A stretch of DNA of 64,000 nucleotides. Source: an uncultured Actinomycetes bacterium. GTDB lineage: Bacteria; Actinomycetota; Acidimicrobiia; Acidimicrobiales; AC-9. Position numbers and translations under genes: made by a program. The stretch lies in contig CAVQWQ010000034.1 of the NCBI GenBank assembly GCA_963717645.1, forward strand, positions 256,232-320,231, written 5' to 3'. The notes below the pieces were generated by a model that saw only the letters and a list, made by a program, of their open reading frames with translations, was not told where the DNA came from and ran no database searches. Positions within the stretch are counted from its first letter, which is position 1, and each line of letters begins with the position of its first letter. Of this stretch, positions 38,606-62,175 are shown piece by piece.

Positions 38606-39844
38606 ATGGGCCCCATGCGCGCCCTAGACGAGGCTCCGTTCCTGGATCCCTTCACCGAGGAGTTCCAGGCCGACCCGCTGCCCATCATCGACCGGCTTCG
38701 AGCGCAGTCGTGGCTGGCCCGTACCCCTATCAGCGCCCTGGTGCTGGGCCGCGAGCAGGTCCACAAGCTGTTGTCCGACCCACGGCTGCAGAGTGCGCTG
38801 CTGCAGCTGACCCGACTCCAGGGGGTCGACGAGGGCCGCCTCTACGACCTGGTCTCCTCGGCCCTGCTCTCCTTGGACGGCGCCGACCATGCGCGGATCC
38901 GCGCCCTGGTGAGCCGGGCGTTCACACCCCGTGCCGTCGAGCCCTACCGGCCTGCCATGCGCGCCCTGGCCGAGGTGCTCGTCGAGCGTTTCGTCGGGAC
39001 GGGGGAGTGCGAGTTCATGGCGGACTTCGCCGACCACTACCCGATCGAGGTCATGTGCCAGCTCCTGGGGGTGCCGCCCGAGGACCACCTGCGCTTCGCC
39101 CGGTGGGGCGACGCCCTGACCCATGTGCTCTCGCTCGAGCTCGGCCTGCACCTCGACGAGGTCAACGAGGCCGTGGCCGGCCTCAACGAGTACCTCGACA
39201 GGCTGATCGGCGACCGCCAGCGCTCGCCCCGTGGGGACCTGGTGAGCCAGCTCATCGCCGCCGGCGACGACGGCGACCGGCTCAACCCGCTCGAGCTGCG
39301 GGCGCTGCTCGGCGGGCTCTTGTTCGCCGGCTACGACACCACGCGCAACCAGCTGGCGCTGGCCATGACGCTGTTCTGCGAGCACCCCGATCAGTGGCAG
39401 CTGGTGGCCGACCAGCCCGAGATCGCCGCACCAGCCGTCGAAGAGGTCATGCGCGTCGCCGGTGTCATCACCGTCACGCCCCGGGTGGCAGTGGAGGACA
39501 TCGAGCTGGACGGCTGGCGCATACCGGCGTGGTCGCTGGTGTCGTTGTCGCTGTCGGCTGCCAACCACGACCCCGCTGCCTTCGACGAACCCCACGGCTT
39601 CGACATCACGGCTCGGCGCGAACCGCAGCTGACCTTCGGCGGTGGCCCTCACTTCTGCCTGGGGGCGAACCTGGCGCGGGCCGAGATGCAGGAGGCCCTT
39701 CCGGTGCTGGCCCGGCGGCTGGGCCCGATCGCCCTGTCCGCTGCGCCACGGTGGCGCTCCACGACCGGGATCTTCGGGCCGGCCGCCCTGGCCCTGCGGT
39801 TCTCGCCGGCCGGCGCCGAGGGCCGGCTGGCCAGTCGCTCCTGA
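38606..39844 (+). CDS. Cytochrome P450
   Basis: FGGGPHFCLGANLARAEMQ heme loop, LLFAGYDTTR I-helix and an EVMR K-helix. Confidence 0.8.
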   Translation: MGPMRALDEAPFLDPFTEEFQADPLPIIDRLRAQSWLARTPISALVLGREQVHKLLSDPRLQSALLQLTRLQGVDEGRLYDLVSSALLSLDGADHARIRALVSRAFTPRAVEPYRPAMRALAEVLVERFVGTGECEFMADFADHYPIEVMCQLLGVPPEDHLRFARWGDALTHVLSLELGLHLDEVNEAVAGLNEYLDRLIGDRQRSPRGDLVSQLIAAGDDGDRLNPLELRALLGGLLFAGYDTTRNQLALAMTLFCEHPDQWQLVADQPEIAAPAVEEVMRVAGVITVTPRVAVEDIELDGWRIPAWSLVSLSLSAANHDPAAFDEPHGFDITARREPQLTFGGGPHFCLGANLARAEMQEALPVLARRLGPIALSAAPRWRSTTGIFGPAALALRFSPAGAEGRLASRS

Positions 39845-40924: not shown

Positions 40925-41995
40925 TCAGCCGATCAGCTGCTCGGCCTCGAGGTCGATGGCGTGGCGACCGTGGCGCTGGGCCATGGTGACGAACATGTCG
41001 TCGCCCCGATCGGTCTGCTCGACCAGCATGGAGGCGGCGACGGCCATGATCAGCCCGCCGAACGCGTAGCGCCGGTACTGGGTCCAGCAGTCGCTCCAGC
41101 CGAGGCTCTCCACCCCGGCCGCCCGTAGCGCCCCGTGGTAGGCGCGGACGAGCTCGTCCTCGTGGGCGCGCCGAGTCTCGGGGACCAGACCGGCGCCGAG
41201 GAAGTAGCTCAGGTCGCCGATGCCGGGGCCGTGGGTGACGGTCTGCCAGTCGACCACAACCACCGGCGGCCCCGCCGCATCGGCGCCGAACAGAAGGTTG
41301 TCGAGTCGGAAGTCGCCGTGGGCGACCGTCCACGGCCCTCGGCGATCGCCGAGATAGCTCGGAAGCCTCGCCATGAGCCGCTCACCCAGGGCCATGATGT
41401 CGGCGTCGACGCGCCCGGCGTAGCGGTCGCAGAACCCGCCGAACAAGGCGGTCACCAGCTGGCTGGTGAAGGCCACGGCCTCCTCGGGACTGCGGTGGAG
41501 CCAGTCGACCCCGGCCAGGCCCGGATCACCCCACCGGGGCGCGTGAAGCCGGGGGAGCTCCTCCACGGCCACCGCCGCCTGGTCGACGCTGCAGCCCGCC
41601 AGCTGGTCGCCTTGACGCGCCGGGGCGACGTCTTCCAACAGGAGCACGAAATCCGTTCCCGTAGGGTCGAGGTGGGCGTGGTAGCAGCGGGGCGCGCGCA
41701 CGGGAAGCTGCGGCGCCAGCTGGCGGTAGAAGCTCACCTCGATCTCGTAGTTGCGCAACGCCGCTGCTGTCGCCCGGCTGGTGGGGTCGGCGGCGGGGAG
41801 CTTGGCGATCAGCGACAATGGCGCAGCCGTCGGGCCGTCGTAGGTCGGCGTCAGGCGCACGCAGTCGCTCATCTGCCCCGTGCCCACGGGGGCGCAGGCG
41901 ACCGAGCGGACGCGGATGTCGCCGAGCAGGGGCGACAGGGCGTCGGTGAGCCATTGCGGGGTGAGCGCGTCAGCGCTGGTCCAGGTCCCGGTCAC
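40925..41995 (-). CDS. Phosphotransferase-enzyme family (APH/choline-kinase-like) protein
   Basis: VAHGDFRLDNLLF (HGDxxxxN catalytic loop) and IGDLSYF (DxxYF). Confidence 0.75.
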   Translation of the reverse strand: MTGTWTSADALTPQWLTDALSPLLGDIRVRSVACAPVGTGQMSDCVRLTPTYDGPTAAPLSLIAKLPAADPTSRATAAALRNYEIEVSFYRQLAPQLPVRAPRCYHAHLDPTGTDFVLLLEDVAPARQGDQLAGCSVDQAAVAVEELPRLHAPRWGDPGLAGVDWLHRSPEEAVAFTSQLVTALFGGFCDRYAGRVDADIMALGERLMARLPSYLGDRRGPWTVAHGDFRLDNLLFGADAAGPPVVVVDWQTVTHGPGIGDLSYFLGAGLVPETRRAHEDELVRAYHGALRAAGVESLGWSDCWTQYRRYAFGGLIMAVAASMLVEQTDRGDDMFVTMAQRHGRHAIDLEAEQLIG

Positions 41996-46316: not shown

Positions 46317-47591
46317 GTGGAATCGCGCCAAGTGCTGACGATCGACGATATCGACCTCTCTGACCTGGCCTTCTGGGCCCGGCCGCTCGACGAGCGGGAA
46401 GCGGCCTTCGAGGCCCTCCGCCGGCACCGACCGATCGCCCACTTCGACGATCCGGAGCCACCACCCGGCATCACCGTCCCTATTCCGCTGGACGGCTCGG
46501 GCTACTACGCCGTCACCCGCCACGCCGACGTCGTGGAGGCGAGCCGCGAGCCCTCGTCGTTCTGCTCGGGTCGGGGGGCCACGAGCATCTTCGACATGCC
46601 GACCGAGTTCCTCGAGTTCTTCGGCTCCATGATCAACCTCGACGATCCGCGCCACGCTCGCCTGCGGCGCATCGTGTCGGCCGCCTTCACTCCTCGGATG
46701 GTCAAGAAGATCGAGGACGAGGTGAAGCGGTCGGCGTCGCTCATCGTCGACGACGTGATCGAGAAGGGGACGTGCGACTTCGTGACCGAGGTGGCGGCGA
46801 AGCTGCCGCTGCGGATCATCTGCAACATGATGGGCGTGCCCGAGCCCGATCACGACTTCGTCTTTCACCACTCCAACGTCATCCTCGGCGGCATGGATCC
46901 CGAGTACGTTCCCGAGGGCAGCGACGTCGTCATGGCCCTGCTCACCGCGGGTCAGGAGCTCACCCAGCTCATGGAGGACCTGGCCCGGCAGCGGGCCGAG
47001 CGGCCCGGCGACGACGTCACCTCGGCCCTGGTCACGGCCAACGTCGATGGCGAGCAGCTGACCAACCAGGAGCTGGCCTCGTTCTTCATTCTCCTCGTCG
47101 TGGCGGGCAACGAGACCACCCGCAACGCCATCAGCCACGGGATGAGACTGCTTACCGACCATCCCGATCAGCAGGCGGCCTGGGCGGCGGACTTCGAGTC
47201 GCTGGCACCGACGGCGGTCGAGGAGATCGTCCGGATCGCCTCGCCGGTGATCTTCATGCGCCGGACGGCCACCAGGGACGTGACGCTGGGCGGCGTCGAT
47301 CTCGCCGAGGGGGCCAAGGTATTGCTGATGTACTGGTCGGCCAACCGCGACGAGGCGGTGTTCGAGGAGCCCTACCGCTTCGACATCCGCCGTCACCCCA
47401 ACCCCCACGTCGGTTTCGGCGGCCCAGGACCGCACTTCTGCCTGGGGGCCCATCTGGCCCGCCAGGAGATCACCGCGATGTTCCGCGAGCTTCTCGGCCG
47501 GGCACCCGGCATCCACACGACTGGAGATCCCGAGCGGCTGCTGTCCAACTTCATCAACGGCATCAAGCATCTGCCCGTCGCCGCCGCCTAG
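46317..47591 (+). CDS. Cytochrome P450 (CYP124/125/142-like), paralogue of the gene at 22850
   Basis: FGGPGPHFCLGAHLARQEITAMFRELL and AGNETTR. Long blocks identical to the 22850 protein. Confidence 0.85.
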   Translation: MESRQVLTIDDIDLSDLAFWARPLDEREAAFEALRRHRPIAHFDDPEPPPGITVPIPLDGSGYYAVTRHADVVEASREPSSFCSGRGATSIFDMPTEFLEFFGSMINLDDPRHARLRRIVSAAFTPRMVKKIEDEVKRSASLIVDDVIEKGTCDFVTEVAAKLPLRIICNMMGVPEPDHDFVFHHSNVILGGMDPEYVPEGSDVVMALLTAGQELTQLMEDLARQRAERPGDDVTSALVTANVDGEQLTNQELASFFILLVVAGNETTRNAISHGMRLLTDHPDQQAAWAADFESLAPTAVEEIVRIASPVIFMRRTATRDVTLGGVDLAEGAKVLLMYWSANRDEAVFEEPYRFDIRRHPNPHVGFGGPGPHFCLGAHLARQEITAMFRELLGRAPGIHTTGDPERLLSNFINGIKHLPVAAA

Positions 47592-50865: not shown

Positions 50866-51849
50866 TCAGGCTGGCGCAAGTGCGGCGACCGATCGGCGAA
50901 CTGCCTCCTCTACGCCGACCGCAGGCCGATAACCGAGCGACTCCAGCTTGCTCACGTCGTAGCGCGGCCCGACGCCGATTTCCCGGACCGCATAGCGGGT
51001 CATCAGCGGGCGCGTGGCGCTCCGCCTGGCCCGAGCCACGGCCTCCGAAACGGCTCCCATCCCCAGCCCCACGGAGTAGGGGACCGAGAAGCGGGGTGGC
51101 CGCAGTCCTGCTGCCTTGGCTACGAGCTCGACGAAGCCTTTGAAGCTGAGACCGAAGCCGTCGGAGACGATGTATCCCTCTCCCGCCGCCTGCTTGGAGC
51201 CGGCGACGAGAGCGATGGCATCGGCCAGGTTCTCGTTGTAGGTGAGCTCCATCGCAGCCTTGCCCCCGCTGAAGTACACCAGCTGGCCCGACCGCAGCCC
51301 GCGCACCAGCTCGGGGACCAGATGACGGTCACCTGGTCCGAAGATCCAGGTCGGATAGACCACCGACACCTCCATGCCGCGATCCTGGAAGCTCCAAGCC
51401 AGGTTCTCGGCCTCCAGCTTGGTTCGGGAGTAGGGATGGTCTACCCCTACCTTGGGGGTCTCCTCGTCTATCACGACGTCGTTGCGGAAGCCGAACACGT
51501 CGATGGTGCTCACGAAGACGAATCGGCCCACTCGGCTGCGCTGGGCCTCCTCAAGAAGCGCCTTGGTCCCCTCGCAGTTGGCCTGGTAGAAGGCCTCCTC
51601 GGCTCCCCAGTCATCGACCATCGCCGCAGTATGGACGACCGTGTTGGCGCCGTTGCATAGTTCACGAAGGCTGTCGGGTCGCGTGAGATCTCCCACATGC
51701 TCCGTGTAGCCATCCGCGTTTTCCGCCCAGCCGGCACCTTTGTCGCGCACAAGGCCGCGCACCTCGTAGCCCCGAGCGGCGAAAACGCGGGCGACCGCGG
51801 ATCCCACACAGCCCCCGACGCCTGTAACGACCGCTATGCCTTCCGACAT
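50866..51849 (-). CDS. NAD-dependent epimerase/dehydratase (3-beta-HSD-like extended SDR)
   Basis: IAVVTGVGGCVGSAVARVF (GxxGxxG) and YSRTK (YxxxK). Confidence 0.8.
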   Translation of the reverse strand: MSEGIAVVTGVGGCVGSAVARVFAARGYEVRGLVRDKGAGWAENADGYTEHVGDLTRPDSLRELCNGANTVVHTAAMVDDWGAEEAFYQANCEGTKALLEEAQRSRVGRFVFVSTIDVFGFRNDVVIDEETPKVGVDHPYSRTKLEAENLAWSFQDRGMEVSVVYPTWIFGPGDRHLVPELVRGLRSGQLVYFSGGKAAMELTYNENLADAIALVAGSKQAAGEGYIVSDGFGLSFKGFVELVAKAAGLRPPRFSVPYSVGLGMGAVSEAVARARRSATRPLMTRYAVREIGVGPRYDVSKLESLGYRPAVGVEEAVRRSVAALAPA

Positions 51850-52009
51850 GACCTGTGCCTTCCCCTGGTCTGTTTCCCTACGCTGAACGAGCCTCATCAC
51901 ATCTAGGCCACCATGCCCTGCGCCTTCGAGACAACCCCTAGCACGCCGTGAGGCTGCCATACGCCGCTTCCAACTCCGGGGCGGCGGTCAACGCCCAGAA
52001 GGCCAGCGT

Positions 52010-52309
52010 TCATCCTGGAACGTCTTCGTCCGCTCCGGTTCGGCCAATCGTGTCGAGCGCGTGGGCCACGATGTGGTCATCGTCCATGTGGCAGGCGGCA
52101 TTCAGTCGGGTCGAGCCGCAGACCAGGATTGCTCGGCCTGAGCTTGGTCCCAGATGAAGACCCACCGTTTCGATCGCCTTGCCGTCCCGCATGTGTGACA
52201 CCCACGTCTCGTTGCCCTCCAATGTCTTCCCATCTCATTCAAAGGAGAAGTGCAGGAGGGCCACGACGTGCTCATCGTTGCCCACCACGTCTTGGATGGT
52301 CACCTTCAT
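52010..52309 (-). pseudogene. NTF2/SnoaL-like gene interrupted by a single in-frame TGA (MKVTIQDVVGNDEHVVALLHFSFE-UGA-DGKTLEGNETWVSHMRDGKAIE...)
   Basis: Minus-strand ORFs 52235..52540 and 52010..52222 are in the same frame, separated only by TGA at 52232-52234. Trp at that position gives the SnoaL-like FSFEWDGK. Confidence 0.4.
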
Positions 52310-52673
52310 CGAGTCACGAGTCGCCTGCGCAGATTGCATCAGAAGGGCGTAGGCCGTATCACGCCCTTGGTGACTCCCGCTCACCCAACTCTGACCAGGA
52401 CACATGTGGAGCACTGCATCGGGTGTGCTTCTCGCGGCGATCGACAATGATGACAGCACAAGCGGAACCACGAACGGTTGTTGACGGCCCGTCAGGTGCG
52501 GGGCCGGCGGTGCAGGGACCACGACCCAACATGGAACCACCCACTTCTGTCGGAAACTGCGAAGCCCGCCGGCCGTGCACTAGCGCATCCGGCCGTCACC
52601 CACGCACGCGGTGAGTCGTCCGGTGGCAACGGTCATTGAGGAGCACAACGCACGAGTTCGCCGGGTCGCTGTC

Positions 52674-55334
52674 TCAGAACGCCTGGCGGAACACTTCGAG
52701 GACCTCGGCGGGATCGCTTACCGGGCGGGCGTTGAACAGTGTGGCTGTGTCACCGAGGGCGTGCAGCGCTGCCGCCTCCAGGGCGTCCTCGGGGACACCA
52801 AGCCCTCGCAACGTCATCGGGTGATTGATCTCCCTCATCAACTCCTCGACGGCGTCTGCCGCGGCAAACGCAGCGTCGTGATCGGCCAAACCGGCCGTGT
52901 TGACGCCGAGCGCCTGTGCCGCCATGGCCAGCTTGTCGGCAGCGTACTCGGCGTTGAAGCGCATCACCTTGGGCAGCACGATCCCGCATGCGGTGCCGTG
53001 GTGGACGTGGTGTAGTAACCCAACGGTGTGCGCCATGGAGTGCGCGAGGCCGACCTGCGCCGTCGAGAAGGCCCAGCCAGCCATGCACGCCGCCACCGAC
53101 ACCTGAATTCGCGCCTGCTCGTCCACGCCGTTGGCCACGGCTCGCGGCAGGTACTCCTTCATGAGCCGGAGGGCGTGCAGGGCCTGCCCGTCGCAGACGG
53201 TCTGAGATAACGTGCTCGTGAGCGCCTCGATGGCGTGCGTTATCGCGTCCATGCCCGTCGCTGCCGTGAGGTGAGCCGGAAGGGTGATTGTCATGCGGGG
53301 GTCGAGGATGGCAACGTTCGGGACGATGTTCGCGTCGACGATATATACCTTCTGGTTAAGCGTCGTGTTGTGGATCACCGCAACGTCGGTCACTTCGCTC
53401 CCGGTTCCGGCAGTGGTCGGGATGGCGATGTGCGGTGTCTGCGGCTCGCTCAGGCGCATGAGCGCGATGTGGTCGTTCGCCTCTCCGCCGTTCTTGAGGG
53501 TCACGCAGACCCCCTTTGCGGTGTCGATGACGCTCCCGCCCCCGACGCTGACGATACAGTCGGCACCGAGCTCACGGGCCTTCGCGGTGGCCGAGTCGAC
53601 TGCAGCCAGATCGCTGTCCGACGGGATGTCATCGAAGGCTCCCACGTAGAAGTCGCAGAGCGCATCCCGGACGAGCTGGGCGAGCCCCGCCTGGCGGACA
53701 CCGGAATCGGTCAGGATCAGGGCCCGGCGGCAGCCGAGGCTGACCACCGCCTGCGGCAGCGCGGCGAGCGTGCCATGGCCGGCGATGACGTTGGTAGGCG
53801 ACTTGTACTGGAGCGCGTCGAGTCGCGGGTTGTCCGCGAAGAGGTTCATCGTGAAGTTGGCCTGTCGCGAGGCGGCGGAGCTCACGTGTATGCGCTTGAT
53901 CTGGGTGTACTCGGCGAGCCCCACGGCTCCGAACTCTCGACCGACCCCCGACTGCTTGTAGCCGCCGAAGGGAGCGAAGTCGCCGAAGATGTGGAAGTTG
54001 TTGATCCACATGGTGCCCGTACGGACCTGACGGGCTATCCACTCCGCCCTGGCGTTGTTGTTCGAGAAGACCCCGCCCGCCAGCCCGTACACGGAGTCGT
54101 TGGCGATGCTGACCGCTTCTTCATCCGAGTCGAACCGCTCGACACAGACGACCGGCCCAAAGATCTCCTCCTGGGCGATTCGCATGTCGTTCCGCACGTT
54201 CGCGAAGATGGTCGGCGCGTAGTAGAAGCCACCTTCGAAACCCGGTATCTCGACGCGGCTCCCGCCCGTGATCAGCTCCGCGCCTTCCTCTGTTCCCAGC
54301 CGGACGTAGCGTTCGACGGTCGCCAGTTGGGCGGCGCTGACCAACGGTCCTTGGTGCGAGCCGGGGAGGAGCTGGTACCCCACCCGCAGCTCTTCGGTGC
54401 GCTTGCGCATGCGCTCGACGAATTCATCGTAGATCTTTCCGGCAACCAAGACCCGGGTACCCGATTCGCAGACCTGTCCCTGGTGGAAGAACGTGCCGAA
54501 GATTGCCCCCTCCACCGCCAGGTCCGCGTCAGCGTCGTCCAGGATGATGTTGGCCGACTTGCCACCCAGTTCCAGGGTGACCTTCTTGACGGTGTCCGAG
54601 GCCATCCGCATGATCTGGGCGCCGACGGAGGTGCTGCCGGTGAACGCGATCTTGTCCACCTCGGGGTGGGTACACAACGTCGCGCCCAACTCCGCGCCCG
54701 GGCCGGTAAGAACGTTGATGACACCAGCGGGGATGCCGGCGTTCTGGGCGGCCTCGGCCATGATGAGCGCCGTCAGCGGGGTGACCGATGCCGGCTTCAG
54801 GACGATGGTGTTCCCCATCACGATGGCGTGAGCGATCTTCCAGGAGGCCATGCTGATCGGGAAGTTCCAGGGAATAATGCCGACGCAGACCCCGATCGGC
54901 TCGCGGCGGATGTACTCGCGGGCGGGTGCGAAGACGTTTCCGGAGTAGGGAATCTCCTCTTCCCAGGGGAACTTCGTGGCGGCGTAGTGGCCGAGGTTGC
55001 GCAGCGTCCCAGACGCGAGCATTCCCCAGAACTTGCTGAGCCCGATGACCTGGCCGGAGTCCATCGACTCCACCACGGCCAGTCGAATGCCTTGCGAGGC
55101 GATGTGGTCGGCGAAGTTGTAGCACTTGCGCGCTCGTACCTCTGGCGTCAGACGACTCCATTCTCCATGGTCGAAAGCGTGCCGCGCCGCGGCGATCGCC
55201 GCCTCGGCGTCAGCTATGCCAGCCCGCGCGACCTGGGCGATGGGAACGCCTGTGCCGGGATCGATGGACTCGAACGTCTCACCGCTCTGTGCATCGAGGA
55301 ATTCACCATTTATGAACAGCTTGTACACATCCAT
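52674..55334 (-). CDS. Fusion protein: N-terminal NAD(P)-aldehyde dehydrogenase (non-acylating type) plus C-terminal iron-containing alcohol dehydrogenase
   Basis: The ALDH domain has FTGSTSVGAQIM, ELGGKSANIIL and a catalytic FFHQGQVCESGTR. The Fe-ADH domain has SVGGGSVIDTAKG and AIPTTAGTGSEVT plus His clusters. 886 aa. Confidence 0.85.
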   Translation of the reverse strand: MDVYKLFINGEFLDAQSGETFESIDPGTGVPIAQVARAGIADAEAAIAAARHAFDHGEWSRLTPEVRARKCYNFADHIASQGIRLAVVESMDSGQVIGLSKFWGMLASGTLRNLGHYAATKFPWEEEIPYSGNVFAPAREYIRREPIGVCVGIIPWNFPISMASWKIAHAIVMGNTIVLKPASVTPLTALIMAEAAQNAGIPAGVINVLTGPGAELGATLCTHPEVDKIAFTGSTSVGAQIMRMASDTVKKVTLELGGKSANIILDDADADLAVEGAIFGTFFHQGQVCESGTRVLVAGKIYDEFVERMRKRTEELRVGYQLLPGSHQGPLVSAAQLATVERYVRLGTEEGAELITGGSRVEIPGFEGGFYYAPTIFANVRNDMRIAQEEIFGPVVCVERFDSDEEAVSIANDSVYGLAGGVFSNNNARAEWIARQVRTGTMWINNFHIFGDFAPFGGYKQSGVGREFGAVGLAEYTQIKRIHVSSAASRQANFTMNLFADNPRLDALQYKSPTNVIAGHGTLAALPQAVVSLGCRRALILTDSGVRQAGLAQLVRDALCDFYVGAFDDIPSDSDLAAVDSATAKARELGADCIVSVGGGSVIDTAKGVCVTLKNGGEANDHIALMRLSEPQTPHIAIPTTAGTGSEVTDVAVIHNTTLNQKVYIVDANIVPNVAILDPRMTITLPAHLTAATGMDAITHAIEALTSTLSQTVCDGQALHALRLMKEYLPRAVANGVDEQARIQVSVAACMAGWAFSTAQVGLAHSMAHTVGLLHHVHHGTACGIVLPKVMRFNAEYAADKLAMAAQALGVNTAGLADHDAAFAAADAVEELMREINHPMTLRGLGVPEDALEAAALHALGDTATLFNARPVSDPAEVLEVFRQAF

Positions 55335-55739
55335 GGCATCAGTACCGTTTTCGCCGTGTGTGCAGGGGATTTATTGACTGTGCGCTCCACGGCCGCGGAG
55401 GAGTAGAGCCGATGGTCCCAAGTCGCGCTGTCGGAATCAGCGCCGTCTCCTGGTCGATCCGGGCGAGACCAGTGTTGCTTCGTGCTTGGGCGCCGGATCC
55501 AGGACCAGCAAAGTGCTGCAGAGTCCCCCAGAGGAGTGAATGGCAGGTCGCTAGGGGAGTCGCTGCTACAGGACTCCAGGTTCTCCAGGGACGCCGGCTT
55601 CCTCCATGGACGTCGTCTCGTCCTCGGCCATCTTCGGGACCTCTGTCGGTCACGCCGCCGCTGAAGCCGATACGTTCGGCAGGCCAGAAGCCCACCAGCC
55701 GGGGCGTGGCCGTCTGGCCGGTCGGCCCGTCAGCTGGAG

Positions 55740-56445
55740 GTGGACGTGATCCATGGGTGTGACTTCTCCTTGGGCATGCTCCAGCACGCATCGAGGCGGG
55801 GGGACAGTGGCTGGGTTGCCGAGAGACTCCCCCCGCGCTCGGCTTCGATGGACGCGGTGATCTCGACCGAGTCGTTCCACTGGTTCCCTGATCCGGACGC
55901 CGCCCTCGCCGAGTCCCCCCCGGGGTACTGGCTCCTGAGAGGAGGGCCCCGCGCTCGTGGTTGCCAACGACAGCGGAACCAACCTGATGCCCGACGCCGG
56001 GGCGCTGTACGCTGCTCTCGTGCGCCACCGGGGAATCGATCATCCGACGTACTCACCGGCCTACGACGCGCTTTTCGCTGCCCGGGCTCGACTCGACGCT
56101 TCGGCGCTCGGGCGTGCTTCCGGCCAGTCCAGCCAATGCCGAGGCCGCCCTCGACCAGGGCGGCGTGGTGGTGGTCTATCCCAGGTACTCCAGCCACTGG
56201 ACTGGTCGGCATGGTGGGACCGAGAGGATGATCCAGCTGCCGTGCACCGCTGCTACGAGGAGACCGAAGCCGTTCTCCAGCACGGGCTCGATCATCTCGT
56301 CTCGGAGACCCCAAATGCGCTGCTCGCCCGGTTCAGGAGAGGGCCGGCCAACCGCGGCGCAGCGCGAGCGGGAGATGCCGAAGAGGGGAGGGAGACCGAC
56401 AGACCTGCAGTCCACGTCACTCCCCAGGAGCCCGTGGCCGCGTAG
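55740..56445 (+). pseudogene. Class I SAM-methyltransferase remnant, N-terminally truncated and frameshifted
   Basis: CDFSLGMLQHA...SMDAVISTESFHWFPDPDAALAE (post-I/II/III motifs) with no motif I. The frame breaks at a C7G4 homopolymer near 55914-55924, and plausible protein continues in ORF 55957..56445. Confidence 0.4.
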
Positions 56446-56885
56446 GGGGATCGGCCCGCACAAGGCGGCGGCGCCATTGTGGCCGTGGTGGTTACGTTGA
56501 ACGTCGGACTCTACTCGACGATGTTGTGACGCGCGGTGACAGCAGACCTCTACTCAGGAGACTCTCCGATGAGGTTCGCTCGCTCCGGAGCTGACTGACC
56601 CCACCATTAAACGATACCTAGGTGGCGGCCTCTTCTCTCGAGGCCCACACTTGCCAAGCTCCCGAAATGAGGCCGGCGTTTGGCCGGCTCTCAATCGTGA
56701 CGAACCGAACCTGGTCGGCGACCCCGACGGTGTAGTGGTCGTTAGCAAGGGACCAGTGAGGACCGGTCATCGGGATCTTATGGAAATCGTCAGTCGACTC
56801 CGGGCGGAGTACCTTGGTGCTGAGGCTCCAATAGTCGGGTTGCCGCAAAGCACTCCGCCTCTCGGCGCGGAGGGAGGGCCCAGCG

Positions 56886-58655
56886 ATGGTGGAGGCCGTG
56901 CAGGTCGGGGAAGCTGGAGCCAAGGAGCCGAACGCGCTCGCCCGGGCGCTGTGGTACCGCCAGCTGGGTCGATACCCGAACACCGGGCCTCGCTACTTCT
57001 ACCTGGGCATCGTGGTCGTCGGCACGATCATGCTCTACTACCAGCTGTACGTGGGGGGTGCCGTAGCTCCCCAGATCACCACCTCGCTCCACATGTCGTT
57101 CCCCTTCTTCGTGTACATCCTGGTGATAGGCAACGCTCTGGGCGCCTTTGGATCGCTCTTCGCCGGGTTGGCCGACCGTTGGGGGAGGGCCAACCTCGTC
57201 GCCTACGGCCTGGTCTTCACGGGCGCCATGATCGCCTTCGGCGTGCCCAACGCACCGAACAAGTACGCCTTCATCGTGATGGCCTCCTCGATCGGCTTCG
57301 TGGAAGGCATCATCCTGGTGGCCACGCCGGCTCTCGTGCGAGACTACTCCCCGCAGATCGGGCGAGCCTCGGCCATGGGGTTCTGGACCCTTGGGGCGGT
57401 CATTGGCAGCCTGATCGTGAGCCTGGTCTCCAGCCACACCGTCAACGACCTGCACTTCTGGTACTCAGGGGTCAACGGGGTGGTGTGGCAGGACCAGTTC
57501 GTCATCTGCGGGATCGTCGGGCTGGTGGTTGCCGCCGTCGCCGTGGCCTTCCTGCGAGAACTGTCCCCCCGCCTCCGCGACCAGCTGATGGTGACAATGC
57601 GCGACCGGGTGCTCATCGAGGCCCGAGCCAAGGGGCTCGATCTCGGGGCTGCACTTCGCCATCCCTGGCGCCAGATGCTCCACCTCGACATCGTGGGCTC
57701 GGCGTTCGCCATCAGCTTGTTCCTGATCGTCTACTACACCCTGATCGGCTTTGCGGTCCTGTACTTCGTCTTCGTATTCGGTTTCACCACGCAGCAGGCC
57801 AACAGCCTCGGGAACTGGATATGGGCATTCAACGCCGGGGCCCTGGTGTTGGTGGGCGTGGTGTCGGACTGGCTGCGGGTTCGCAAGCCCTTGATGGTGG
57901 TGGGCGGCCTGGGCGCCATCGCCATGACGTCGCTGTTCGCCTACCAGACCTACAACGTCCATACCGGCTACTACACCTTTGTCTGGATCCTGAGCCTGAT
58001 GGCCATCTTCATGGGTGTGGTCTTCGCCCCGTGGATGGCGAGCTTCACCGAGACGGTCGAGAAGCGCAGTCCCGCCCTCATCGCCACGGGCTTGGCCGTG
58101 TGGGGATGGATTATCCGAGCGGTGATCTCTGTGTCGTTCTTGATCCTTCCCTACGTGGTCACCACCATGAGCCCGCTCTTCGAGATCGGGACGACGGCGC
58201 AGGCAATCCAGGCCAAGTATCCCGCCCAGGTGAAGACCCTGCAGACCCTCAACGTTGTCGCCGACTCCCAGACGCTGGCCGCCCTCAAAGCCAATCCCAA
58301 TGACCTCACCGCCGGCCTCAAGGCTGCCGGTGAGTTCGCGGCGGCAGAGCACATCCCCCTCAGCCAGGCGGTGACGCAGCTCCAAGCCACCCAGAGGATG
58401 CCCGCCTCGGACATCGCCTACCTGAACGCCCACGGTACCCGGTTGCAGAACGCTCTGAATGCCGCACCCCGGGAGGGGAGGACGTGGTGGTGGGTGTGTG
58501 TCGGGACGGAGGCTGTGTTCATCCCCTTCATCTTCGTGATGGCGGGACGTTGGAGCCCTCGGCGGGCGAGGCGGGACGAGCGCGAGCATGAGCAGCTGGT
58601 TGAACGGGAGTTCGAAGCCTTGCACGCGTCCGGTGGTCTGGCCGCGCCCATCTGA
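56886..58655 (+). CDS. MFS-type transporter (large, about 12 or more TMS with a soluble C-terminal tail)
   Basis: Many hydrophobic helices and an MFS-like GxxxDRxGRA pattern (GLADRWGRAN). Confidence 0.7.
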   Translation: MVEAVQVGEAGAKEPNALARALWYRQLGRYPNTGPRYFYLGIVVVGTIMLYYQLYVGGAVAPQITTSLHMSFPFFVYILVIGNALGAFGSLFAGLADRWGRANLVAYGLVFTGAMIAFGVPNAPNKYAFIVMASSIGFVEGIILVATPALVRDYSPQIGRASAMGFWTLGAVIGSLIVSLVSSHTVNDLHFWYSGVNGVVWQDQFVICGIVGLVVAAVAVAFLRELSPRLRDQLMVTMRDRVLIEARAKGLDLGAALRHPWRQMLHLDIVGSAFAISLFLIVYYTLIGFAVLYFVFVFGFTTQQANSLGNWIWAFNAGALVLVGVVSDWLRVRKPLMVVGGLGAIAMTSLFAYQTYNVHTGYYTFVWILSLMAIFMGVVFAPWMASFTETVEKRSPALIATGLAVWGWIIRAVISVSFLILPYVVTTMSPLFEIGTTAQAIQAKYPAQVKTLQTLNVVADSQTLAALKANPNDLTAGLKAAGEFAAAEHIPLSQAVTQLQATQRMPASDIAYLNAHGTRLQNALNAAPREGRTWWWVCVGTEAVFIPFIFVMAGRWSPRRARRDEREHEQLVEREFEALHASGGLAAPI

Positions 58656-60471: not shown

Positions 60472-62175
60472 ATGAAGAAGATCGAGGCGCTGAGGCCGTC
60501 GACTGCGAGTCGAGCTCGCGGTGTCTTGTCCTTCTCGCTGCTCGGCCCGGTTGAGTCGCTGGCTCGGCCCCTATCGGGCGCCCTCGAGACGTTCCGGGCG
60601 CTCTTCCAGGTTGGGCTTCTCCGTCCGATTCGGCCTGACCAAGCGGTGGCGATGGTGGCAGCCCTGAGACGCTGGGGCCTGACTCCGGCTGCCGGATACG
60701 CCGCCTGCGCTATCCGAGACCCTCACGCCCCCGCCCTGATCGACGAGGCCGGCACACTCAGCTTCCAGGAGGTGGACCGGCGCACGACCGCGCTGGCCAA
60801 GGGGCTGGCTCGTTCGGGCATCGACGCCGGTCACATCGTGGGAGTCCTGTGCCGGAACCACCATCTCCTCATCGAGGCCACGGTGGCCCTCACCAAGCTG
60901 GGTGCCAACTCTCTTTATCTCAACACTTCCTTCGGGGGGCCCCAGCTGGCAGGTGTCCTACGGGAGGAGAGGGCGTCAGGGCTCATCTACGACCAGGAGT
61001 TCGCCGAGATAGCCAAGAGCGGAGCCAGGAGGCGAAAGCGCTTTGTCGCCTGGGTCGACGGCCCGCCTCGCGGGGGAAGGCGCGACCTCACCATCGAGAG
61101 CCTCATCGAGACCGGCAAGTCACTCGAACCCCTGGCACCGACAAAGCCCGGTGGCCAGATCCTCCTCACCTCCGGAACCACGGGACGACCCAAGGGGGCC
61201 AACCGAGCACTGCCTTACACCCTCAACCCTCTGGTGGCGTTCGTCTCCCGCATACCACTGCACCACAGGGACATCACCTTGATCTCCGCTCCTCTCTACC
61301 ACGCGTGGGGCGTGGGCAGCGTAGGAATGTCCCTGATCTCGGAGGCGACGGTAGTACTGCAGCGGCGCTTCGATCCCGAGGCCGCCCTGGCCGCCATCGA
61401 GGCACACCACGTCAGCGTTCTGGCCGCGGTGCCGGTGATGGTCCAGCGGATCATGGCATTGCCCGAGGCCACCCGCCGGCGTTACGACACGGCCTCTCTG
61501 CGGATCGTGGCCTTGAGCGGGTCAGCTCTGCCTGGCCCCGTGTCCGAAGCGTTCATGGACTACTACGGAGAGATCGTCTACAGCCTCTACGGGTCGACCG
61601 AGGCGGGGTGGGGTGCTATCGCGACCCCTGGAGACCTGCGAGCCGCCCCCGGTACGGCTGGGTTCCCCCCGAAGGGGGCCGTGGTACGCATCGTCGACGA
61701 GGCAGGCCGGGATGTACCCATCGGTCAGACCGGACGCATCTTCGTCGGCAGCGAGCTGTTGTTCGAGGGCTACACCAGCGGCCACACGAAGGAGATGCTC
61801 GAGGGCCTGATGTCCACCGGCGATGTCGGACATTTCGACGAGTTGGGGCGCCTGTTCGTTGATGGCCGGGAGGACGAGATGATCGTCTCGGGAGGAGAAA
61901 ATGTCTATCCTCAAGAGGTGGAAGACCTGCTGCGGGCGCACGACGCCGTGGCTGACGCGGCTGTCATCGGAGTGCCTGATGAGCACTTCGGCCAGCGCCT
62001 GAAGGCCTTCGTTGTAGCGGAGCAGAGTCGAGCTGTCTCCGAGAAGGAGCTCAAGGACCATGTGCGGTCGACCTTGTCCCGCTACAAGGTCCCCCGGGAC
62101 GTGGAGTTTGTCGGGAACTTACCCAGGAACCCGACCGGCAAAGTTCTGAAGCGGGAGCTGGACAGGCTGGCCTAG
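60472..62175 (+). CDS. AMP-dependent acyl-CoA synthetase/ligase (FadD-like)
   Basis: LTSGTTGRPKGA AMP-binding motif, GEIVYSLYGSTE and a C-terminal GKVLKREL. Confidence 0.85.
   Translation: MKKIEALRPSTASRARGVLSFSLLGPVESLARPLSGALETFRALFQVGLLRPIRPDQAVAMVAALRRWGLTPAAGYAACAIRDPHAPALIDEAGTLSFQEVDRRTTALAKGLARSGIDAGHIVGVLCRNHHLLIEATVALTKLGANSLYLNTSFGGPQLAGVLREERASGLIYDQEFAEIAKSGARRRKRFVAWVDGPPRGGRRDLTIESLIETGKSLEPLAPTKPGGQILLTSGTTGRPKGANRALPYTLNPLVAFVSRIPLHHRDITLISAPLYHAWGVGSVGMSLISEATVVLQRRFDPEAALAAIEAHHVSVLAAVPVMVQRIMALPEATRRRYDTASLRIVALSGSALPGPVSEAFMDYYGEIVYSLYGSTEAGWGAIATPGDLRAAPGTAGFPPKGAVVRIVDEAGRDVPIGQTGRIFVGSELLFEGYTSGHTKEMLEGLMSTGDVGHFDELGRLFVDGREDEMIVSGGENVYPQEVEDLLRAHDAVADAAVIGVPDEHFGQRLKAFVVAEQSRAVSEKELKDHVRSTLSRYKVPRDVEFVGNLPRNPTGKVLKRELDRLA

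Follow-up and report, generated by a model that had tools for sequence, protein, structure and literature searches.

A BdhE-type fusion of a BetB-like aldehyde dehydrogenase and an iron-type alcohol dehydrogenase in an uncultured Acidimicrobiia bacterium

AdhE of Escherichia coli (b1241) carries an aldehyde dehydrogenase (ALDH) followed by an iron-type alcohol dehydrogenase (Fe-ADH) in one chain of ~890 amino acids (aa), channels the aldehyde between domains of neighbouring chains, and assembles into helical filaments; its ALDH half is of the acylating EutE/PduP type. A second fusion, 'bifunctional dehydrogenase E' (BdhE), was described together with the cryo-electron microscopy structure of the Halomonas eurihalina enzyme (9LDL / EMD-63004; Konno et al., Nat Commun 2025, PMC12454647), and a search of the literature on the physiology of orthologues or other descriptions of the fusion found only this paper. 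According to it, BdhE is independent of AdhE, with both halves in clades apart from those of AdhE, and forms a closed, ring-shaped homotetramer with an inter-domain tunnel rather than a spirosome filament, the ALDH-ADH interface being formed by family-specific elongated loops; 47 members were reported, horizontal transfer was inferred, and the H. eurihalina enzyme oxidised ethanol and choline in vitro. The same two enzyme classes take an alcohol through the aldehyde to the acid as two separate polypeptides, with no fused tunnel, in the pairs GbsA/GbsB (Bacillus, choline to glycine betaine) and AldA/FucO (E. coli). Here we analyse a 64,000-nucleotide stretch of contig CAVQWQ010000034.1 (assembly GCA_963717645.1, positions 256,232 to 320,231; hereafter the window) from an uncultured bacterium of the Acidimicrobiia, which carries a bdhE-type gene encoding an 886-aa fusion protein (Table 1).

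The window gene almost certainly encodes a BdhE orthologue. A search of Protein Data Bank (PDB) sequences returned 9LDL (886 aa, 'aldehyde dehydrogenase family protein') as the top match at 1314.7 bits, aligned without gaps over residues 1-886, followed by single-domain ALDHs at ~400 bits, the best of them at 408 bits. The two proteins are 65.5% identical overall, more so in the ALDH half (70%) than in the ADH half (61%), and share their length and domain order, the motifs LELGGKSA and GQVCESG, the loop KFPWEEE, and all candidate metal ligands; they differ in their linkers, which are 23% identical over aa 491-512, and in their source, 9LDL being gammaproteobacterial and the nearest relatives of the window gene being metagenome-assembled genomes (MAGs) of Acidimicrobiaceae, in another phylum. 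The start codon of the open reading frame (ORF) is supported by the pairing of residue 1 with residue 1 of 9LDL, and third-position GC reaches 0.81-0.90 across most of the ORF, with little such periodicity in the flanks. As a single polypeptide of >800 aa with an N-terminal ALDH (PF00171) and then an Fe-ADH, the product has the BdhE architecture, and its 29.2% identity to E. coli AdhE over 805 aligned columns (91% of 886) places it within the quasi-AdhE definition (<30% identity, >90% coverage) of PMC12454647. The ALDH-then-Fe-ADH order had been proposed in a first-pass annotation of this DNA and is borne out by the ORF and its Pfam domains; the same annotation called the architecture uncommon, which stands, but it is no longer undescribed, since the fusion was published with its structure in 2025 and the window gene is a further member of a known family.

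Structural comparison gave the same ranking. An AlphaFold2 (AF2) monomer model of moderate quality (predicted local distance difference test score, pLDDT, 76), which served only for ranking structural matches, retrieved 9LDL first in Foldseek (E 3e-96), then AdhE chains (E 1e-38 to 1e-41, 24% identity), and then hydrolytic ALDHs. Whole-chain TM-scores to 9LDL were low (0.43) because the inter-domain orientation differs, and the low-confidence segments of the model (123-144 and 445-511, with pLDDT <50 at 484-511) coincide with a family-specific loop and the linker. Both halves are placed with BdhE by identity, bit scores and Foldseek; the monophyly of the family is taken from PMC12454647.

To describe the family as a whole, we used the best 120 database matches, with residue conservation measured over 112 members. 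Of the 120, 111 have a length of exactly 886 aa and give gap-free alignments to the window protein, with identities of 60-85%; conservation is ≥98% at 306 positions of the family alignment, and the block of lowest conservation (481-520) covers the linker. Little or no variation occurs at Asn157, Lys180, Glu255, Cys289, Glu390, GGGS, Asp696, His700, His765, His769 and His779. In addition, a genome scan with each species represented by a single genome yielded 80 loci; at least 78 of these carry a full-length or contig-truncated bdhE.

The ALDH half sides with hydrolytic rather than acylating enzymes. With E. coli K-12 adhE, eutE, eutG and betB as references for each half, the N-terminal half was 40% identical to BetB over 485 aa (329 bits), whereas AdhE gave a local match of 152 aa at 60 bits and EutE scored 39 bits, and the whole protein scored 300.4 bits against the NCBIfam AdhE model PRK13805, a threefold shortfall from its cutoff of 951. 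In acylating ALDHs a small hydrophobic residue replaces the Glu general base and a conserved His lies near the catalytic Cys, whereas non-acylating ALDHs have no such conserved His (Tuck et al. 2016, PMC4762007). At Asn157, Lys180, Glu255, Cys289 and Glu390 both the window protein and 9LDL agree with BetB, while in AdhE and EutE the first three of these positions are occupied by Thr, Ser/Ala and Val/Ala; Leu418, within a BetB-like YGLAGG, replaces the acylating His-Thr dyad of AdhE/EutE (AdhE His367-Thr368), and Glu389-Glu390 of the EE-FGP motif pair with BetB and are conserved across the family. The residue set is therefore that of a hydrolytic ALDH, and neither acylating feature (loss of the Glu base, His-Thr near the Cys) is present. 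We take Asn157 to be the oxyanion-hole Asn of hydrolytic ALDHs (ALDH2 Asn169), and position 183, which is Ser or Thr and never Glu across the family, presumably corresponds to ALDH2 Glu195, the residue that disfavours NADP. The aromatic-box positions of betaine-aldehyde dehydrogenases (Phe158, Trp165 and Phe283) were not used, since we assume them to be just as typical of ALDH1/2 and hence of no discriminating value.

The first-pass annotation had assigned the N-terminal half to the non-acylating ALDHs rather than to AdhE on the strength of ELGGKSANIIL and a catalytic Cys. Both are found: LELGGKSA at 254-261 fits the PROSITE ALDH glutamate signature, and the motif FFHQGQVCESGTR holds Cys289 (GQVCESG). 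The assignment holds, and by bit score the domain groups with BetB, away from the acylating AdhE/EutE enzymes. The PROSITE ALDH cysteine signature is unmatched because Glu and Ser come directly after Cys289; this C-E-S sequence occurs in 108-110 of the 112 homologues and is a family hallmark. An acidic residue adjoining the catalytic nucleophile is unusual, and PMC12454647 is silent on Glu290.

In the C-terminal half, Pfam places Fe-ADH at 513-679 and ADH_Fe_C at 690-885. This half is 35.5% identical (190 bits) to EutG, the partner of EutE, and 33% identical (168 bits) to the ADH half of AdhE, to which it is clearly homologous. It has the GGGS dinucleotide motif (598-601) and the Asp/His/His/His site of group III Fe-ADHs, and PROSITE Fe-ADH signature 1 matches at 675. 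None of the 112 members deviates at the GGGS or at the candidate metal ligands (Asp696, His700, His765/His769 and His779); we assume the ligand assignment from general knowledge of Fe-ADHs with a FucO-type site.

Curated profiles gave no substrate. On the N-half, the betaine-aldehyde dehydrogenase models TIGR01804 and PRK13252 reached 526.9 and 464.4 bits, against cutoffs of 668.6 and 593; on the C-half, the GbsB choline dehydrogenase model NF053866 reached 283.3 bits against a cutoff of 550, close to the scores of lactaldehyde reductase (281), ErcA (272) and 4-hydroxybutyrate dehydrogenase (251). Five equivalogs each stand at about half their cutoff on the ADH half, and the substrate class is therefore unreadable from the profiles.

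These findings make it probable that the window gene encodes a BdhE orthologue in which a BetB-like (class-1/2-like) ALDH has been fused to an iron-type ADH independently of AdhE, and which oxidises an alcohol to an acid. In the mechanism we propose, the C-terminal Fe-ADH domain would oxidise a primary alcohol to the aldehyde with NAD(P)+, and the aldehyde would move through the inter-subunit tunnel of the solved ring tetramer and reach the N-terminal ALDH domain in a neighbouring chain. There Cys289 would form a thiohemiacetal and then an acyl-enzyme, which a water molecule activated by Glu255 would hydrolyse to the free carboxylic acid, so that alcohol would be converted to acid with formation of two NAD(P)H and no release of the toxic aldehyde. 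Tetramer, tunnel and the in vitro oxidation of ethanol and choline are taken from the work on the orthologue (PMC12454647). That the second step is hydrolytic and independent of coenzyme A (CoA) is suggested by the active-site residues and seems reasonably likely; such a step would make the reaction essentially irreversible, and its direction catabolic or detoxifying. The acyl-CoA synthetase and aldehyde:ferredoxin oxidoreductase genes found near bdhE at 15 and 7 of the 80 loci, respectively, fit a free-acid product that needs separate activation.

Several points weigh against this reading. The H. eurihalina enzyme showed acetyl-CoA-dependent NADH oxidation, and its activities were concluded to be shared with AdhE (PMC12454647); this is not expected of a strictly hydrolytic ALDH. 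The unusual Glu290 beside the catalytic Cys could alter the chemistry. Support from the neighbourhood is weak, given the low count for acyl-CoA synthetases, and in the window this gene lies 5 kb off on the other strand. As to the assays themselves, BdhE rates were below those of AdhE, the ethanol assay contained CoA-SH, and the main text and supplement legends of PMC12454647 hold no CoA-free control, product identification or discussion of catalytic residues. In the choline assay E. coli AdhE, too, 'oxidised choline', which leaves that assay with little to say on specificity.

The alternative closest to the published view is that BdhE is an analogue of AdhE, with a CoA-linked ALDH that interconverts acyl-CoA, aldehyde and alcohol reversibly and serves alcohol fermentation or ethanol use where AdhE is lacking. 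Such functional redundancy is the reading favoured by PMC12454647, where the orthologue, besides oxidising NADH with acetyl-CoA, reduces NAD+ with ethanol and CoA-SH, and where AdhE and BdhE occur together in 0 of 25,877 genomes. Many bdhE hosts, moreover, are anaerobes (Smithella, Desulfatitalea, Dehalococcoidia). We nevertheless regard it as unlikely, in view of the invariant Glu base without the acylating dyad, an ALDH half that resembles BetB and can barely be aligned to AdhE/EutE, the low score against the AdhE model, and assays that describe neither a CoA-free control nor a product and in which AdhE, too, responded to choline. The window organism, Acidimicrobiaceae and Solirubrobacteraceae are, we presume, not obvious fermenters.

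Seen across the family, the retained hydrolytic Glu base and the lack of the acylating His-Thr dyad in every member would thus point to a channelled alcohol-to-carboxylate oxidiser. We lean slightly towards the broader proposal that BdhE is no functional twin of AdhE: an irreversible enzyme of this kind, whose true substrate would be neither ethanol/acetyl-CoA nor necessarily choline, and whose product would pass to separate acyl-CoA synthetases. If so, the published 'shared activity' and 'redundancy with AdhE' would reflect assay promiscuity, and two recurrent neighbours of bdhE, a 742-aa protein and an IscA/HesB-like protein, would be parts of an undescribed alcohol/aldehyde-handling module. 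Going by active-site residues that do not vary among more than 100 members, BdhE is predicted to oxidise its substrate to the free acid without CoA, whereas the published account equates it with AdhE in function. Whether the enzyme hydrolyses or uses CoA decides if AdhE and BdhE are convergent in function or in architecture only, and the answer would redirect the hunt for the physiological substrate.

A special case of the alcohol-to-acid mechanism, with the substrate specified, is a dedicated enzyme converting choline via betaine aldehyde to glycine betaine, like a fused Bacillus GbsB and GbsA, for osmoprotection or choline catabolism. Among the curated models, TIGR01804 scores highest on the N-half and GbsB on the C-half, and the orthologue that oxidised choline in vitro comes from a halophile (PMC12454647). 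Both scores, however, fall far under their equivalog cutoffs (the window protein stands at ~50-80% of these), other Fe-ADH models score about as well as GbsB, and the choline assay responded to AdhE in the same way (PMC12454647). Many hosts come from peat bog, groundwater and freshwater sediment. Nor did any choline-related family (BCCT/Opu transporter, GbsR/BetI regulator or other) recur among the nearest neighbours in the 80 loci, and no choline genes were found within ~15 kb of bdhE in the window. Choline as the dedicated substrate is accordingly quite improbable.

That the fusion is an artefact, either two neighbouring genes run together by a frameshift error in sequencing or assembly, or a pseudogene in decay, might be suggested by the degraded look of both flanks (~700 bp downstream and 1.5 kb upstream without a convincing gene), yet we give it practically no weight: the protein aligns without gaps to the solved structure of an orthologue purified as a single polypeptide, which in itself refutes an artefact, the 111 homologues of identical length come from independent assemblies, every listed match has both domains, and the codon-position GC bias runs uniformly through the ALDH/ADH junction.

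The family-specific loop KFPWEEE is a seven-residue insertion relative to BetB; against the solved BdhE the window protein shows no indel. In 29 family members examined at this site, F122, W124 and E126 do not vary, and conservation of P123 and E127 is ≥90%. The loop may correspond to one of the ALDH-ADH interface loops described in PMC12454647, tentatively loop 3 or 4. Among the best 150 matches of an exhaustive search through 1.84 billion representatives at 50% identity, just two full-length clusters had the fusion architecture (P0121 at 51% identity and P0122 at 41%), and both of these most divergent clusters retain the KFPW core. The remaining matches among the 150 were single-domain ALDHs, fragments, or long proteins with ALDH alone by Pfam; single-domain relatives at 49-53% identity include P0126, P0128, P0130 and P0132. 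P0133, P0147 and P0256 were considered as further fusions and rejected: Pfam finds only ALDH in them, in two stretches each, and they look like tandem-ALDH proteins.

BdhE is much more widespread than the 47 members first reported, extending over several phyla, and is unusually uniform. Counted from record titles, ~54 of the 80 loci belong to Desulfobacterota or 'delta proteobacteria' (Smithella, Desulfatitalea, Desulfatibacillum alkenivorans and others), 12 to Chloroflexota, 6 to Acidimicrobiia, 2 to Solirubrobacteraceae and 2 to Gammaproteobacteria/Pseudomonadota, with single loci from Dormibacterota, Spirochaetota and Myxococcota. Cultivable carriers of the gene include H. eurihalina, Desulfatibacillum alkenivorans DSM 16219 and Desulfatitalea alkaliphila. 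Several genomes carry two bdhE paralogues, either ~2.3 kb apart within one locus (L005, 8000-10633 and 12997-15630) or at paired loci (L020 and L033, L008 and L041, L063 and L075), which hints at substrate diversification within the family.

Table 1. Positions of the bdhE-type gene, its domains and key residues, and neighbouring genes in the window (window coordinates), and of genes recurring near bdhE across the 80 loci.
Feature	Position or occurrence	Strand	Basis or remark
bdhE-type gene, complete 886-aa coding sequence, ATG to TGA	52674..55334	-	ORF, third-position GC, 9LDL alignment, DNA homology limits
N-terminal ALDH domain, aa 13-481, hydrolytic (non-acylating) type	53892..55298	-	Pfam PF00171 Aldedh, E 1.3e-160; BetB 40% identity
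C-terminal iron-type (group III) ADH domain, aa 513-885	52680..53798	-	Pfam PF00465, PF25137
Inter-domain linker, aa 482-512, least conserved part of the protein	53799..53891	-	Identity, family conservation, AF2
Family-specific loop KFPWEEE, aa 121-127, insertion relative to BetB	54954..54974	-	Alignment to BetB, family conservation
Asn157 codon	54864..54866	-	Pairs with BetB Asn; Thr in AdhE/EutE; invariant 112/112
Glu255 codon, putative general base for acyl-enzyme hydrolysis (ALDH2 Glu268)	54570..54572	-	Within LELGGKSA; Val/Ala in AdhE/EutE; invariant 112/112
Catalytic Cys289, then family-typical Glu290-Ser291	54462..54470	-	Alignment and family conservation
Cytochrome P450 genes, two	38606-39844, 46317-47591	+	
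EcKL/APH-type kinase	40925-41995	-	
OleD/HpnA-like short-chain dehydrogenase/reductase (SDR), 2-alkyl-3-oxoalkanoate reductase-like	50866-51960	-	165 bits, below cutoff
FadD12-like acyl-CoA ligase	60472-62175	+	570 bits, below cutoff
742-aa protein without Pfam/NCBIfam match, divergent, just upstream of bdhE	26/80 loci; e.g. L005:5454-7682	-	Desulfobacterota and relatives
IscA/HesB-like protein of ~116 aa, directly upstream of bdhE, same strand	17/80 loci; e.g. L044:977-1327	+	Mainly Chloroflexota, with most loci of that phylum included
Acyl-CoA synthetase near bdhE	15/80 loci		Window included
Aldehyde:ferredoxin oxidoreductase near bdhE	7/80 loci		
SCP2 near bdhE	4/80 loci		

No conserved operon surrounds bdhE across the 80 loci, where the neighbours show only weak fatty-acid/aldehyde themes (acyl-CoA synthetase, aldehyde:ferredoxin oxidoreductase, thiolase, SCP2). 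The 742-aa protein may, judging from its recurrence just upstream, be a dedicated regulator or partner of bdhE. For the IscA/HesB-like protein, which matches Pfam Fe-S_biosyn and reaches 69 bits, below cutoff, with NCBIfam IscA_HesB_Se, a role in supplying metal to the Fe-ADH domain is speculation. The window itself encodes neither of these two proteins, nor an aldehyde:ferredoxin oxidoreductase, an SCP2, or a second ALDH or Fe-ADH.

The remaining claim of the first-pass annotation, that the substrate relates to neighbouring lipid, choline or sterol genes, did not hold up: the neighbours are miscellaneous, the flanks are unshared, and, as noted above, choline-related families do not recur across the 80 loci. 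Besides the genes in Table 1, the wider window encodes an aquaporin, two major facilitator superfamily transporters and an HAD-IB protein, none of them choline-specific. The surroundings have a loose lipid/xenobiotic-oxidation flavour, without conserved linkage to bdhE.

In a comparison with loci L001-L004, L078 and L030, DNA similarity to the nearest relatives (Acidimicrobiaceae/Acidimicrobiales MAGs, 81-87% identity) is confined to window positions 52661-55340, a few bases from the ORF ends, and the flanks are unrelated. These relatives, together with the FadD12-like neighbour, suggest an Acidimicrobiaceae-like origin. No shared gene order was found among Actinomycetota bdhE loci. Together these two results agree with the horizontal transfer inferred in PMC12454647, and bdhE appears to move as a single gene. 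One of the matching loci, in a Dormibacterota MAG (L030), shares 86% DNA identity with the window gene over 1087 nt, reflecting either a recent cross-phylum transfer or a binning error.

Scans of the 51.9-56.95 kb region, which are uninformative for a high-GC organism, placed the sole two promoter-like matches inside the ORF and found no terminator. The downstream gap of ~700 bp (51961-52673) ends at the OleD/HpnA-like SDR gene, and the 1.55 kb upstream (55335-56886) contain no convincing ORF and show weak codon-position GC bias. GC content is ~0.65 in both intervals, compared with 0.69-0.72 in the 30-50 kb region. Within the upstream interval, a plus-strand ORF (55740-56231) begins like a fragment of an S-adenosylmethionine-dependent methyltransferase (…CDFSLGMLQHA…AVISTESFHWFPDPDAAL) and then degenerates; from this pattern it is probably a methyltransferase pseudogene remnant.

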